Positions 2,174 through 21,425 of a stretch of DNA of 64,000 bases are shown piece after piece; position 1 is the stretch's first letter, and each line of letters begins with the position of its first letter. The notes beneath the pieces are model-generated. The model saw only the letters and a program-made list of their open reading frames with translations, was not told where the DNA came from and ran no database searches. The stretch comes from an uncultured Actinomycetes bacterium. GTDB taxonomy: Bacteria > Actinomycetota > Thermoleophilia > UBA2241. A program made the position numbers and the translations under genes. The DNA is taken from NCBI GenBank assembly GCA_963725665.1, contig CAVRZA010000004.1, positions 320,001-384,000 of the forward strand, written 5' to 3'.

Positions 2174-3259
<1,086 letters not shown>

Positions 3260-16669: not shown

Positions 16670-18079
16670 TCAGAACGCGAAGTCCTCGTAGTGGATGCGC
16701 CTGTCGGGAACACCCAACGACCGTGCCGTCGCGATCAGGTGCTCCATAAAGCCACCCGGACCGCAGACGTAGAGGTCACGATCGACGATGTCGGGCACCA
16801 GCCGGCGCAGGTGAGCCGCGTCGAGCGGCGCCTGCGAGCGCGGTCCGACGACTTCGTGAAGTCGTCCGCCGCGCTCGTCCACGAGCCGTGCGATCTCCTC
16901 CCGAAGGACGAGGTCGTGCTTGGTGGAGCCACGCAGCACGACGACGAGGTCGACGTGATCGGGCAGGTCGTCGAGCATGGCCCGCACCGGGGTCGACCCG
17001 ACGCCGGCGCCGACGAGCAGCACCCTGTCTGTATCACGCATGTGATGGGTGAAAGCGCCGTAGGGTCCTTCGATCGCGACCCGCGTGCCCGGCTTGAGCT
17101 CTGCCAGGGCCGAGCTGTGGTCGCCGACCGACTTGACCGTGATGCGCATCTCGTTCCCCGCCGGCAGAGCCGACAGCGAGTAGGGGTGCGCCTGCAACCA
17201 CATGCCGCGCTTCAAGAAGCGCCAGTGCAGGAACTGCCCGCCCGAGACCGGCAACCGGTCGAGGTTGCGCCCCCGAGTGACGACCGACACGACGCCGGGC
17301 GCCTCGTGTTCGACGCGCACGACCTTGAGCCGATGCCCGAGGCTGCGCACGATCGGCAGGGCGAAACGGTAGCTCAACACGACGCCGGCGGTCAGCAGCC
17401 ACACGCTGATCCAGTAGGCCCGCGCCCAGGGATGACCCAGGAACGGAGCTCCGGTAGCGAGCTGGTGCGTGAACGACAGCGCCGCTGCTAGGTACGTGTA
17501 GAGGTGGACGGCCCACCAGGTCTCGTAGCGCATCTTCTTGCGCACGTTGCGATACGAGGTCGCACCGGCCAGGAAGAACAGACCGAGCGCGGCGGCCGCG
17601 CCGAGCATCCCGGGGAAGGTCGTGACGAGGACGCCGATCTCATGCATGGCGCCGGTCGCGACTCCCTGGGCGTAGCCGAGGGTGATGAAGAGCGCGTGGG
17701 CGGCGATCAGGATGATGATCCAGGGCCCGAGCCGCCTGTGCCAGCGCACGAGCTTGTCTTGCCCGAGCGCCTGTTCGACCGCCGGTATGCGGCCGATCAT
17801 GAGGATGGTCACCAGCATCAGGTACGTGCCGAGCAGACCCGCGACGCGGCCGGCGAAGGTGAGCATGCCGCCCGGCGCGGCCAAATCGTGCGCCGTCGTG
17901 ACGGGCACGACGAGAGCGACGCTGACCGCCGCTCCCAGCCACGTCATCGTGTTGAAGAGGCGTGCCCATAGCTTGTTCGGCCGTGTCGCCTCGGCCCGAG
18001 CCCGGGAGCGCTCACGCGGCCTCCATCGGATCAGTTCGCCGGCGACCTCGGCGGCGCCGGCTTCCGACTCAATGTTCAC
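16670..18079 (-). CDS. Ferric reductase-like transmembrane protein fused to FAD/NAD(P)H-binding ferredoxin reductase domain
   Basis: TM His residues (WHR, AHA, HLY, HQL), HPYSLS, EGPYGAF, GAGVGSTP, YVCGP, HYEDF; GTG after AAGGGAG. Confidence 0.88.
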   Translation of the reverse strand: MNIESEAGAAEVAGELIRWRPRERSRARAEATRPNKLWARLFNTMTWLGAAVSVALVVPVTTAHDLAAPGGMLTFAGRVAGLLGTYLMLVTILMIGRIPAVEQALGQDKLVRWHRRLGPWIIILIAAHALFITLGYAQGVATGAMHEIGVLVTTFPGMLGAAAALGLFFLAGATSYRNVRKKMRYETWWAVHLYTYLAAALSFTHQLATGAPFLGHPWARAYWISVWLLTAGVVLSYRFALPIVRSLGHRLKVVRVEHEAPGVVSVVTRGRNLDRLPVSGGQFLHWRFLKRGMWLQAHPYSLSALPAGNEMRITVKSVGDHSSALAELKPGTRVAIEGPYGAFTHHMRDTDRVLLVGAGVGSTPVRAMLDDLPDHVDLVVVLRGSTKHDLVLREEIARLVDERGGRLHEVVGPRSQAPLDAAHLRRLVPDIVDRDLYVCGPGGFMEHLIATARSLGVPDRRIHYEDFAF

Positions 18080-18169
18080 TGGCCTCAACTCCCTTGTGCG
18101 CGGCGGGGTCGGGACGACCCCGCCGCGCGTCTCTCGTTCACAGGGCTGCGGGGGAGTGTAGCCGGGCAA

Positions 18170-18188
18170 GATGAAGCGAGGATGAAGC
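18170..18188. promoter_or_regulatory. Direct repeat, OmpR/PhoB-type operator candidate
   Basis: GATGAAGC twice with 11-bp period upstream of the reductase. Confidence 0.4.
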
Positions 18189-18397
18189 AGCGGTCTCGCG
18201 TTGGCAGTTCAGCGGACTCCGGCCTCCGCCCGTAAGCGCCGCAGCCCAGCTCTCACAGACTGCCCATGACTCCCGCCCAGCCTGGTGCTGATATGGAAGG
18301 ACCTGCTGTCAAGAAGGCAGGCGCAATCGACCTTGCCGGGGGCAGAGGATGGGTGGAGTATGGCGACGGCGGGGGGAGCGCGCCGGGCTCTGTCGTC

Positions 18398-18530
18398 GAC
18401 GCGCGGTCCAAGCTGATATGCGCGGGTTTGGTCATCCGCATGACCGTCTCTGCGTCGGGAGCTGCCGCTTCTCTAAGGTCGAGCGTGGCCCGTGCGCGGG
18501 TTGCTCAATAGCACCAACGCGGATGCTCCT
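18398..18530 (-). ncRNA. Predicted IS110 bridge RNA (target- and donor-binding loops)
   Basis: Two stem-enclosed internal loops; guides TGGTGCTA and GACCTTAG match the empty target, CATATCAG matches the donor junction; RNA ends approximate. Confidence 0.75.
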
Positions 18531-18576
18531 CGCGCGCCCGGCGCGCTCGCCTCGCCGCCTTCCTGCCGACGGTGCT

Positions 18577-19653
18577 CTAGCTCTCCATCACCGCCAGGCT
18601 CCAGCACCAGCCGGCGAGCTCGCGGGCGACCGCCACGGCGGCGACCTTGGAACACTTGCCACGCTCATCGAAGCGCCGCCGGCGACGCTGCAGGCGACGC
18701 TCCGCAAGTCGCGCCCGCTCGCGCACCGTGCCCGCGGCGGCGGCGCGCGCGCGCTGCACGCGCACGCTTCTGCCCGGTGGCCGGCGCTGCTGCCAGGCGG
18801 CCTCGATGAGCAGGCGCCGCGCGTGGCCGTTGCCGGTCTTGGTGATCGCCCCCTGACGCCGCCTCGTCCCGGAGGACTGCTCGCAGGGCACAAGGCCGAG
18901 GAAGGGGCCCAGGCTGCGGCCAGAAAAGCGCTGCCAGTCGCCGATCTCGACGGTGAGCGCGAACGCGGTCAGCGTCGAGATGCCACGCAGACAGGTCAGG
19001 CGCCCGACGACCGGCGCCCAGGGCTCCTTGAGCGCCTCCGCGGCGATCGCCGCGTCGAGGGCGTCACGGCGATCGCGCGCGGCGCACATCGCCGCCAGCC
19101 CCTCCTCATAGGCGACCTGCAATGACGGCTCGCAGAAACGCTGGCGGGCGAGCCACAGCTCGTGTGTCTGTGTCCAGCTGTGCTCCTCCCAGACGATGCC
19201 CCGACGCAAAAGCAGCTTGGCGAGGCGGTGACGGTGGCGCATCAGGTCGCAGCGCGCGTCCTCGCGGGCGCGCACCAGGTCGCGGGCGGCCTCCTCGGCG
19301 AGATCGGGCACCCGTACCGCGACCAGCTCCTCGAGGCGCAGCAGGCGGGCCAGCCGCAGCGCGTCGCGGCGATCGGTCTTGACGCGCTCGCCGGGTGCGC
19401 GCGGGATGCGCGAGAGGGCCGCCACGAGGCAGCGTATCCCGGCCTCGCTCAGAGCGCGGGCCAGGACGTAGCCGGTTGGTCCGGCCTCGCAGGCGACCGC
19501 CTGCGGGCCGGGCTGCGCGCGCACCCAGCCGACAAGCTCCTTGGCGGGCACCGGTGCGGCGAGGCTGCGCACCTCGCCGCTAAGCCCGTCGAGCACTCCC
19601 GCCTGGACCGAGCGGGCGTGCACGTCCAGGCCGATGAACGAACGCTCATGCAC
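18577..19653 (-). CDS. IS110 family transposase (bridge recombinase)
   Basis: IGLDVH, EAGPTG, KTDRRDA (DEDD) and GLVPCEQSSG, ITKTGN. Confidence 0.95.
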   Translation of the reverse strand: MHERSFIGLDVHARSVQAGVLDGLSGEVRSLAAPVPAKELVGWVRAQPGPQAVACEAGPTGYVLARALSEAGIRCLVAALSRIPRAPGERVKTDRRDALRLARLLRLEELVAVRVPDLAEEAARDLVRAREDARCDLMRHRHRLAKLLLRRGIVWEEHSWTQTHELWLARQRFCEPSLQVAYEEGLAAMCAARDRRDALDAAIAAEALKEPWAPVVGRLTCLRGISTLTAFALTVEIGDWQRFSGRSLGPFLGLVPCEQSSGTRRRQGAITKTGNGHARRLLIEAAWQQRRPPGRSVRVQRARAAAAGTVRERARLAERRLQRRRRRFDERGKCSKVAAVAVARELAGWCWSLAVMES

Positions 19654-19782
19654 ACCGTCGCCTCCTTACGGCCGCGGTCTGCCGTCGCGCCAGCCGCAAC
19701 GGCGACCCGCGCCAGACTATGCACCGGGGGCGACGGGCCGTTCCATATGGTCTAGGGTCCTCTGCAGAAGCAGGCAGTCTGT

Positions 19783-19821
19783 GCCGAACATCATCTACAG
19801 ACTGTTTAATCCTTGTTAGGC
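19783..19821 (+). other. Possible attI-like site / core site opening the cassette array
   Basis: GTTAGGC (GTTRRRY) at 19815-19821 after an AT-rich stretch, 9 nt before the first cassette ORF; too short for attC. Confidence 0.35.
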
Positions 19822-19830
19822 GGGGTAACC

Positions 19831-20298
19831 GTGGGGATCTCACTCCGGCCCGTCGCGGCAGGCGACCAACCGAGCATCGACCGCTGGGCGGCGGTGGCGG
19901 CCGACCACATGTCGCGCACACGTCCCTACGCCGAGGGCGCGGACCGTCACGACCCGGACCGCGGTCTCTTCTGGTATGTGATCGCCGACGGCGGCCGCGA
20001 CCTTGGCACCGTGTGGATTGAGCTGCCTCCGGGCTCCGACGAAGCGGTCCTGGGTGTGTTCCTCGGCGATGCGACGTTCTTCGGTCGCGGCATCGGCGCG
20101 GCGGCCATCGAGCTCGCCGTCGCCGAGTTCCGCGGCGCCCATCCGCAGTTGCCGGTCTCGCTGCGGGTGCGCCGCACGAACCAGCGTGCCATCGCCTGCT
20201 ACCGCCGTGTCGGCTTCGCGGTCACCGGCAGCGGCACCAAGTCGCTGCCCTCTGGCGAGGCCGTCCCCTACTACCGCATGGTCCTCGCGCCGTGCTGA
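19831..20298 (+). CDS. GNAT acetyltransferase, integron-type cassette
   Basis: GRGIG, NQRAIACYRRVGF; bounded by GTTAGGCGG and CCGCCTAGC. Confidence 0.8.
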   Translation: MGISLRPVAAGDQPSIDRWAAVAADHMSRTRPYAEGADRHDPDRGLFWYVIADGGRDLGTVWIELPPGSDEAVLGVFLGDATFFGRGIGAAAIELAVAEFRGAHPQLPVSLRVRRTNQRAIACYRRVGFAVTGSGTKSLPSGEAVPYYRMVLAPC

Positions 20299-20325
20299 GC
20301 TACCCCTCGCGGTGTGCTCCGACCC

Positions 20326-20342
20326 GCCTAGCAAGCGCATCA
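20326..20342 (+). other. Left arm of an attC-like site interrupted by IS110
   Basis: GCCTAGC-AAGCGCATCA resembles the left arms of the other attC sites and complements the upstream core GTTAGGC. Confidence 0.6.
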
Positions 20343-21045
20343 TTGGTGTCAGTCTCTCCCCGTGGGATCCCCTGGCACTCGTCAGGTAGCCTCGGACCCG
20401 ACGGCGGAGTGACCCAAAGCGTTTCTGTCGCCCCCGAGGGGCGGACCGTCAGCTGTATTGTCCCCCGCCGCCGGGATCCGAGGGGTCGCCGACGTGACCT
20501 GATAGGAGCCTGGCCGGAAGGCCCCAGCCAAGGCGTGTCCGCCGGCGGTCCCACTGAGATCGGCTGCAACCGACCAAGGGGGACTGAAGTGATCGTAATC
20601 GGGATCGACCCGCATATGAAGACCCATACCGCCGTGGCCGTCGACGCTGCGAGCGGGCGGACGCTCGCCGAGAAGACGGTGAGCAGCGACCCGCGCGGGC
20701 ACGAGGAGCTGCTTCTATGGGCACGCGCTCTCGGTCCCGAGCGCTGCTTTGCCATCGAGGACTGCCGCCACGTCTCCAGCCGGCTTGAGCGCCACCTGCT
20801 GCCCCGCGGCGAGCGCCTAGTGCGCGTGCCGCCGAAGCTGATGGCGGGCGCGCGCTCCTCGGCGCGCACTTACGGCAAGTCCGACCCCATCGATGCGGCC
20901 TGTGTGGCGCGTGCCGCGCTGCGCGAGCCCGACCTTCCGAAGGCCAGCCTCGCCGGGCCCGAGCAGGACGTGCGCCTGCTCGTCGACCACCGCGACGACC
21001 TCGTCGGTGAGCGCCAGCGCATCCAGAAACGCCTGCGCTGGAACC
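20343..21045 (+). mobile_element. Truncated IS110 element: structured 5' noncoding region plus N-terminal half of transposase (GTG 20589)
   Basis: IGIDPH..HTAVAVD, AIED, KSDPIDA; similarity ends near RLRWNL. Confidence 0.8.
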
Positions 21046-21425
21046 TGCAGAATGGCGCTATGTGTTTGCGTGGCATTATCCGCACGGATGAAGTTGGTGA
21101 CTATCGCTTCCGTAGTATCAAGCCAGCAAGCTACCCGATCACCGATGATGGGCCTGTCGGGGGATTGCTGCGAAAACTAGGCCGACATCCTTACCGTCCG
21201 GCCCATATCCACTTTATCGTCTCAGCCGAAGGTTATCGGCCAATCGTCACTCAGATCTTCGCGGAAGGCGATGAGTATTTGGAGTCGGATACCGTGTTCG
21301 GGGTCAAAGACTCGCTCGTGGCAGAGTTTGTTCGGGTGGATTCGGCTGAAGAGGCATCCCATTATGGGTTCCAGCCGCCGTTCTACAAAGTGGAATTCAA
21401 CTTCATCTTGGATAGAGCCAGCTGA
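21046..21425 (+). pseudogene. C-terminal fragment of intradiol ring-cleavage dioxygenase, in frame with the IS110 remnant
   Basis: LRGIIRTDEVGDYRFRSIKPASYPI, RPAHIHF, TQIF, SDTVFGVK; visibly lower GC. Confidence 0.8.

Follow-up and report, generated by a model that had tools for sequence, protein, structure and literature searches.

Whether an insertion sequence carries, in its own non-coding end, an RNA that reads both the site it occupies and its own joined ends, and with which of the known RNA-guided systems such an element would belong, is the question raised by a locus in the genome of an uncultured Actinomycetes bacterium (Thermoleophilia, UBA2241; assembly GCA_963725665.1). The window, as the whole analysed stretch is called here, comprises 64,000 nucleotides (nt) of contig CAVRZA010000004.1 (positions 320,001 to 384,000), and a member of the IS110 family lies on its minus strand between positions 18,288 and 19,753. 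RNA-guided recombinases of this family are under development as genome-editing tools. The answer favoured here, with a probability of about 85% on comparative evidence, is that the element is a sequence-intact IS110-family member with the layout of the IS1111 group, and that the two-loop RNA predicted in its right end reads the target and the joined ends. It is an unexceptional example of a class that was described in 2024 and not a new mechanism. The element is made up as follows.

18290-19751, minus strand: insertion sequence proper, 1,462 bp, delimited by flanks that adjoin one another at two unoccupied paralogous sites of the host genome
18288-18289, unstranded: copy of the CT core at the right-end (RE) junction, AG in element orientation
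19752-19753, unstranded: copy of the CT core at the left-end (LE) junction, read from the window sequence
19654-19751, minus strand: left end, 98 nt, 5' of the gene, first bases ACCATATGGAA
18577-19653, minus strand: recombinase gene, 358 amino acids (aa), GTG start
18290-18576, minus strand: right end, 287 nt, the long 3' non-coding region with the guide RNA
18291-18298, unstranded: RE arm of the subterminal inverted repeat, ATATGGAA on the plus strand, reverse complement of 19741-19748
19741-19748, unstranded: LE arm of the subterminal inverted repeat, TTCCATAT on the plus strand, read from the sequence
18307-18312, minus strand: TTGACA, 25 nt from the RE terminus, possibly the -35 element of a circle-junction promoter

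The limits of the element, 18290-19751 plus one CT (1,464 bp with one copy of the common CT included), are set by its two flanks, because these are contiguous, with a single CT, at empty paralogous sites elsewhere in the genome. In DNA searches of the host's own 3.73-Mb assembly the full element was found only here, and its flanks were found joined directly on contigs C11 (...ggCTGGTGCTAGGGTCttc...) and C2 (...aaCCTGGTGCTAGGGTCctc...); the 14-mer CTGGTGCTAGGGTC has exact matches at C2:226941 and C11:457820 only. The empty site CCTGGTG-CT-AGGGTC, which a first-pass annotation had derived by removing the element in silico, is thus present and unoccupied twice in the host's own genome. Both sites belong to paralogues of a repeat about 105 nt long rather than to the orthologous locus; a search for the right flank in 40 relatives and the host genome gave some match in 20 of the 41 genomes and no orthologous empty site. 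The dinucleotide CT is common to the ends and the target without any longer duplication, as in the IS110 family at large. In element orientation the target reads GACCC-T-AG-CACCAGG and the joined ends read ...CCATATC-AG-ACCATATGG..., and the subterminal inverted repeats, 8 bp long, are inset by 1 and 3 nt from the element ends.

Within the right end, the predicted guide RNA and its four guides are placed as follows.

18376-18552, minus strand: bridge/seek RNA scaffold with closing stem AGCG.../...CGCU; the covariance-model match spans 18381-18545
18509-18517, minus strand: 5' guide of the target loop, (U)UGGUG-CUA, complementary to TAG-CACCA on the top strand in element orientation, 8/8 against the empty site
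18473-18480, minus strand: 3' guide of the target loop, GACCU-UAG, in the sense of the target GACCC-TAG, with one G.U wobble
18443-18446, minus strand: 5' guide of the donor loop, GGUC, for the core G plus ACC of the left end
18413-18420, minus strand: 3' guide of the donor loop, CAUAUCAG, identical to the right end plus core, in the sense of CATATC-AG

The four strings to which the first-pass annotation had assigned guide functions, TGGTGCTA (18509-18516), GACCTTAG (18473-18480), CATATCAG (18413-18420) and ACGGTCA (18442-18448), were all confirmed at their positions on the minus strand. In the order of the RNA, UGGUGCUA (18516-18509) precedes GACCUUAG (18480-18473), and the two target-loop guides, which match 8/8 on one side and 7/8 plus a wobble on the other, overlap on T-A-G. 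In the donor loop the 3' guide matches 8/8. The opposite guide had been credited with 5 of 7 matches over ACGGTCA; the string is where it was placed, but its effective pairing shrinks to the 4 nt GGUC, and an A.C mismatch faces the fourth base of the left end. With both strands counted, TGGTGCTA occurs once in the 64-kb window (0.38 expected from shuffles), inside the non-coding end, and there are two occurrences of CATATCAG (0.53 expected), one at the end of the element itself and one in loop 2. Variant contigs in metagenome runs X2 and X6 carry G rather than A at 18476, giving a perfect target guide GACCCUAG, and the X6 variant also lacks a base at 18507 and so shows the family consensus CUAUGAGCA.

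Relatives provide a wider basis for judging these matches. One genome per species was scanned, giving 593 pattern matches, 561 of which passed tblastn, and the best 80 of the 561 were kept; these share 54-70% aa identity and come almost all from Actinomycetota. Counts of motifs and ends refer to 81 elements (the 80 loci and the window's own), in which regular expressions recovered the 5' and 3' target guides (63 and 78 elements), the donor loop (69) and the right and left flanks (58 and 70). The 5' target guide was set against the six bases after the right end in 44 pairs (43 unique), with 187 of 258 positions complementary, a figure reached by 0 of 10,000 permutations (mean 71.9, standard deviation 7.7); towards the core the match per position runs 0.23, 0.47, 0.74, 0.98, 1.0 and 0.93. 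For the 3' target guide against the five bases before the left TAG, 64 pairs (63 unique) gave 137 matches in 315, again beyond all 10,000 permutations (mean 92.3, standard deviation 6.0). Because the signal here is confined to the last two positions (0.49, 0.95), most members appear to read the left side very briefly, and the window's GACC(C/U) reads it further than most. The 5' donor guide has GGU in 10 of the 11 elements whose left end starts with ACC, and where the left end starts with ACG (n = 50) it has CGU in 46, with two offset by one base and two reading CAU; this agreement was reached by 36 of 10,000 permutations over 18 unique pairs. Neither the 3' donor guide (AUAUCAG or AUUUCAG) nor the right end varies in the family.

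The ends themselves are likewise conserved in outline, the RE terminating in C-AG in all 61 relatives with a defined RE and the LE flank in T-AG in all 70 with a defined LE; lengths range from 288 to 492 nt (AG counted) for the former and from 88 to 152 nt for the latter. The motif TTGAC is found at a distance of 24-25 nt from the right end in 60 of the 61 (among loci L011-L090) and of 33 nt in the other one. Right ends are described as supplying the -35 element of the junction promoter, Pjunc, in IS110/IS1111-type circles (PMC12288879). By eye, and with the ends not joined in silico, no TANNNT hexamer that could serve as the -10 partner was seen 16-19 nt further on in the left end. Two separate observations concern the left end. 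In the predicted fold of 19640-19751 (minus strand), CCCGUCGCC is paired with GGCGACGG, spanning the Shine-Dalgarno sequence and start codon, with z only -1.16, and an analogous pairing (CUGGGGCCUC...GAGGCCCCAG) was seen by eye in relatives; such a pairing may limit translation of read-through transcripts. A lone 11-mer, TAGACCGTATG, at C6:316850 (minus strand) in the host's own genome is identical to the left-end junction of relatives, by chance or as a solo end.

Conservation of the RNA is captured by a covariance model, R1, built from 47 sequences, which has a match immediately 3' of the gene at all 80 loci, 34 of them outside the training set, in every case with an E-value of 4e-18 or better. 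In the window it scores 100.7 bits (E 7e-24), and in the rest of the host genome it matches only two copies of a second element, treated below. The common scaffold is closed by AGCG/CGCU and has the stems GGAGY/RCUCC and CCGC/GCGG; in its middle part come a variable 6 nt followed by CUAUGAGCA, a variable hairpin, ACGCUCG, and a variable 4-5 nt followed by UAGA, and its second loop reads (C/G)GUC(C/A)U-GCGG-UAACCAAC-CCGC-G.AUAUCAG. Rfam 15 does not recognise it: in 17900-20300, at E-values up to 1, nothing relevant was found, the two matches there being at chance level and on the opposite strand.

A hand-drawn structure was evaluated on the alignment of the 47 sequences. It is 86.8% paired as a whole, and sliding the partners by 1-3 columns lowers this to 26-42%; two-sided changes occur in 13 of 34 pairs, and none of 500 shuffles reached the observed covariation. 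Judging from this alignment, the covariation that supports the stems sits in the target-loop half. The stem GGAGY/RCUCC is 98.7% paired with compensatory change in five of five pairs (one pair is U-A in 22 sequences and C-G in 24), the inner hairpin shows compensatory change in four of four, and GAGC/GCUC and GCGG/CCGC are almost invariant. Loop 1, for which the first-pass annotation had named the stems GGAGC/GCTCC and GAGC/GCTC, is also an internal loop in the minimum-energy fold of the single sequence, and so stands. Loop 2 fares less evenly: it is recovered only through comparison with relatives, where its inner stem gains a compensatory change from the second element, whereas its proposed outer stem CGACGC/GCGTCG, 79% paired across relatives, shows no compensatory change. 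A competing 3' hairpin, GUCG/CGAC, is 95.7% paired, again with no compensatory change, and forms poorly in the window's copy. As to stability, the RNA region alone folds with z = -2.67 (3 of 200 shuffles equally good) and the whole non-coding end with z = -1.77 (7 of 200). The more general proposal of a two-loop guide RNA in the 3' end finds its support in the empty sites, in the covariation of guides with flanks and in R1 matches at the loci of all 80 relatives. Because it is only 48% paired, a stem AGUC/GACU on either side of loop 2 was rejected as a general feature.

The same genome offers a further comparison, because a second insertion sequence from this clade is present in two identical copies, at C6:246865-248230 and C8:216402-217887 (L094 and L095); its recombinase shares 47% identity with the one studied here. 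Its left end follows CTAG and begins with ACGCTATGG, and its right end runs ...CTTGACA...CCATATCAG to the boundary. Its target loop holds ..CCGUA-CUA.. and ..GUUCC-UAG... Adjacent to the core, these guides agree with the sequences of both insertion sites, which differ from each other (on the right TAC..; on the left ..CC-TAG and ..C-TAG). The inner stem of its donor loop is GGGG/CCCC where the others have GCGG/CCGC, a compensatory change in a stem that is constant throughout the alignment of 47. As a separate observation, the relative's locus L088 has a second R1 match (2907-3066, 105 bits) about 20 nt past the element's right end, where the sister copy L078 has one match in all; the extra RNA may belong to the remains of an adjacent element or stand alone as an orphan guide RNA.

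The recombinase, at 358 aa, is full length and retains every catalytic residue. It has PF01548 at residues 7-149 (E 8.8e-14) and PF02371 at residues 219-290 (E 3.9e-16), and it scores 202.8 bits against the 140-bit cutoff of NCBIfam NF033542, 'IS110 family RNA-guided transposase'. Alignment to IS621 chain 8wt6 places the catalytic set at D10, E56, D94, D97 and S261-G262, the last within GLVPCEQSSG, with D11, E60, D102, D105 and S241-G242 as the IS621 counterparts; the roles of these residues are those described for IS621 (PMC11208158). D10, E56 and D94 are conserved in 79 of 79 proteins, as are S261-G262 and GL-P, and D97 in 78 of 79, the proteins of L057 and L079 having been left out of the 81 for internal stops in their frames. 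The N-terminal DEDD (RuvC-like) domain, the C-terminal Transposase_20 domain and the catalytic set are those of the IS110 family, and the initial description of a complete element of that family, with ends at the CT boundaries, is borne out.

Given the observed limits, empty site, guide matches, covariation in relatives, conserved scaffold and catalytic residues, a mechanism can be outlined in which the RNA is presumably made, bound by the protein and used to guide recombination, with this copy probably still active. The recombinase, combining a RuvC-like DEDD domain with a Tnp domain that carries the catalytic serine, is encoded upstream of a predicted structured RNA of about 170 nt in the right end. 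Loop 1 would read the target, UGGUG-CUA pairing with one strand to the right of the crossover and GACCU-UAG with the other strand to the left. Loop 2 would read the joined ends, CAUAUCAG recognising the right end plus core and GGUC the core G and first three left-end bases. By analogy with IS621, ISEc11, ISPa11 and ISKpn4, the element would be excised as a circle joined at the common CT (AG in element orientation), and an RNA-bound recombinase tetramer would exchange strands at the CT dinucleotide between the circle junction and CCTGGTG-CT-AGGGTC. The suggestion of the first-pass annotation that the recombinase may be reprogrammable is an extrapolation from the family.

Several observations weigh against this account and have to be set beside it. 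The 5' donor guide pairs over only 4 nt in this copy, and the 3' donor guide yields no covariation evidence because guide and right end are both invariant. The single-sequence fold lacks loop 2 and forms a GGUCAU/AUGACC hairpin instead. Under R1 most relatives score 120-177 bits, well above the window's RNA, and the window's target loop has an extra U (CUAUUGAGCA against the family consensus) and the C-to-U change that makes the G.U wobble. The permutation figures overstate significance because the relatives share descent. A consensus scan of the element found no sigma-70-like promoter or intrinsic terminator. Contigs from four metagenome runs, compared with 17900-20150, showed no joint at the element ends, and hence neither an orthologous empty site nor a circle junction; the five contig joints that were seen all fall inside the gene, with short sides of 21-27 nt and 90% likeness, and are taken as other organisms' relatives. 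Contig X5 is identical over 18281-18524, including 9 nt of the left flank, and is not independent because it may be the source sample. The empty site that the first-pass annotation had hoped to see in relatives or reads is therefore absent in orthologous form from the 40 relatives and the four runs and present only as the two paralogous sites of the host itself. Finally, a single copy alongside two exact free targets fits low or no current activity.

That last point leads to the alternative that survives best, which is that the element is a real family member whose present copy is immobile, a fixed or slowly decaying insertion with an RNA that no longer supports transposition. It is unlikely, though it deserves to be taken seriously. 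The copy is single while C2:226941 and C11:457820 stand unoccupied; its target loop departs twice from a consensus that metagenome variants retain (18476 A>G in X2 and X6, the deletion at 18507 in X6); and its covariance-model score is among the family's lowest. Against decay as the cause of the low score, the closest relative, L011, is equally low at 103.3 bits, so that a divergent sub-branch is the better explanation. The A.C mismatch at the left end's fourth base cuts both ways, since nine of ten relatives with an ACCG start pair there, but six of ten with an ACGA start share the mismatch, multi-copy Rhodococcus elements among them. Nor is the wobble exceptional, with one G.U in each of 14 of the 43 relatives' guide-flank pairs and a tolerance of non-canonical pairs described for IS621 (PMC11208158), and immobility sits poorly with a full-length open reading frame (ORF) that keeps all its catalytic residues.

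The possibility that loop 1 alone guides, in the manner of a short seekRNA, with loop 2 conserved for some other purpose, for example as an alternative end for recombination (an internal copy of the right end in DNA) or as a protein-binding scaffold, is improbable. It would account for the invariance of the 3' donor string and for an outer stem of loop 2 that shows no compensatory change beside a better-paired rival hairpin, and it has parallels in the abundant recombinase-bound RNAs of only 82-96 nt described for ISEc11, ISPa11 and ISKpn4 (PMC11187229) and in the internal alternative ends of ISPpu9 (PMC12288879). It does not explain why the 5' side of loop 2 co-varies with the start of the left end (ACC with GGU in 10 of 11, ACG with CGU in 46 of 50; 36 of 10,000 permutations), why the inner stem changes in compensation from GCGG/CCGC to GGGG/CCCC in the genome's second element, or why the segment UGCGGUAUCCAACCCGCGAAUAUCAG recurs in the proteobacterial ISSso6; and IS621 uses exactly such a donor loop (PMC11208158). 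That the guide-flank matches are coincidence in G+C-rich sequence is hardly credible, for although the whole non-coding end does not fold significantly above shuffles (z = -1.77, 7 of 200), each 8-mer is expected only about 0.4-0.5 times per window on both strands and both lie in the 287-nt end, and the family-level permutations (0 of 10,000) and the model matches in 80 of 80 relatives already refute it.

With the two-loop guide RNA retained as the preferred reading, the site that the element occupies can be considered. Its two halves flank the insertion.

18215-18289, plus strand: left half of the target split by the insertion, a promoter-like repeat about 105 nt long, defined by alignment with two intact copies
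19752-19815, plus strand: right half of the split target repeat, directly ahead of an acetyltransferase-like ORF at 19813-20298

The repeat has three copies in the genome (the window; C2:226913-227016; C11:457758-457861), each just upstream of a gene on the same strand, and contains ATGAC(A/T), then 17 nt, then TAGGGT preceded by TGc, together with three occurrences of the 8-mer ACAGACTG in alternating orientation. By an actinobacterial -10 rule (TANNNT), which we assume to apply, the repeat would be a promoter with operator sites; a consensus promoter scan of the intact C2 copy returned no site. The crossover falls inside the putative -10 hexamer, the extended -10 being TGcTAGGGT; for the host, the insertion splits the apparent promoter of the acetyltransferase-like gene. 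Should the wider lineage of this element turn out to favour promoters of this type, it could work as a naturally occurring promoter switch that is reversible. The three copies may mark a small regulon under one DNA-binding protein. Similar repeat units were noted in the relatives G024 and G010, from two related genera. Orthologues of the acetyltransferase-like gene are present in G023 (82%) and G020 (77%), with unrelated upstream DNA. A further ORF of 377 aa (20292-21425, plus strand), 540 bp from the element, combines the N-terminal DEDD domain (PF01548, residues 103-253) of another IS110-family transposase with the C-terminal portion of a dioxygenase (PF00775, residues 256-374); neither half is duplicated elsewhere in the genome, and the fusion looks like the remnant of an insertion followed by a deletion.

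What the element adds is a G+C-rich actinobacterial clade whose RNA scaffold goes unrecognised by Rfam 15, a link from that scaffold to ISSso6 and ISEc45, and an example of how few target bases are naturally read on one side; it leaves the understanding of the mechanism unchanged. Because the family is being developed for genome editing, well-annotated natural examples with exact ends, an empty site and four guides have some use.

Among the known systems, the element belongs by its layout, as read from the sequence, with the IS1111 group: downstream RNA, short LE, long RE and subterminal repeats. That group is described as having a short LE, a long RE, subterminal inverted repeats of 7-17 bp and an RNA in the RE (PMC11208160), the segment of which complementary to the top strand lies 5' of that for the bottom strand, the reverse of the IS110 type (PMC11187229). 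Here the RE of 287 nt stands against an LE of 98 nt, the repeats are 8 bp, the guide strand order is the same, and, as in bridge and seekRNAs, a target loop with opposite-strand guides is accompanied by a second loop that matches the joined ends. ISEc11, ISPa11 and ISKpn4 (PMC11187229, PMC11208160) share the long downstream non-coding end and short LE, the subterminal repeats, the guide order, the overlap of the guides at the crossover and the GL-P----SG motif, and the RE TTGAC sits where those elements carry the -35 of the junction promoter. The recombinase, however, is distant, a plasmid gene of the ISKpn4 family aligning over only 20% of the query (residues 215-284, E 4e-7), and at 358 aa it exceeds the 330-350 aa given for IS1111-family transposases (PMC11187229); the host, too, differs, being a G+C-rich actinobacterium of wetland/peat-type metagenomes.

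With IS621 and ISCro4 of the IS110 group (8wt6, 9t56) the element shares the DEDD-plus-serine catalytic set, a two-loop RNA with the target loop before the donor loop and one guide per strand in each, a 2-nt core common to donor and target, and a donor-loop guide for the right-hand top strand that covers only one core base. In IS621 the bottom strand is described as the partner of the left guides and the top strand as that of the right guides, the right donor guide reaching only the first core base (PMC11208158); because GGUC likewise covers only one core base, the donor loop here would behave as that of IS621. The first-pass annotation had spoken of IS621-type logic with a downstream RNA, of which the two loops and the position of the RNA stand, whereas the guide strand order is that of IS1111 elements and their seekRNAs, the reverse of IS621. 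The RNA is downstream here and upstream there, the core in element orientation is AG rather than the CT of IS621, an AG crossover having precedent in ISPpu9 (PMC12288879), and the protein similarity is weak (E 7.6e-6 for IS621 and 2.5e-6 for ISCro4), with the best stretch in the RuvC domain and a weaker one in the Tnp domain.

The nearest named relatives, on present alignments, are ISSso6 and ISEc45, names taken from the annotation of Shigella and E. coli plasmids, with full-length recombinase alignments at 39.4% and 38.1% identity. Although R1 was trained on actinobacterial sequences only, with neither of these elements included, it matches just downstream of the ISSso6 gene (46 bits, E 9e-10) and of the ISEc45 gene (24.6 bits, E 2.8e-4), and ISSso6 carries the donor-loop core almost letter for letter. 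Both differ in coming from another phylum, in a different target loop and in much lower sequence identity. Among the papers listed for ISSso6, none has a title that concerns a guide RNA, and the supplementary tables and trees of PMC11208160 and PMC11187229 may already classify ISSso6 and its kin. By protein, as these alignments indicate, the clade is far from both experimentally studied groups, and its placement with IS1111 rests on layout. One rather improbable reading that would join these comparisons is that of a large, mostly actinobacterial lineage (the 561 relatives) that is neither classical IS1111 nor IS621-like. It may include ISSso6 and ISEc45 as its named proteobacterial kin, combine an IS1111 layout with a recombinase about equidistant from both studied groups, and recognise a fixed (C)TAG-centred target that most members may read asymmetrically, over 4-6 nt on one side and 1-2 nt on the other.

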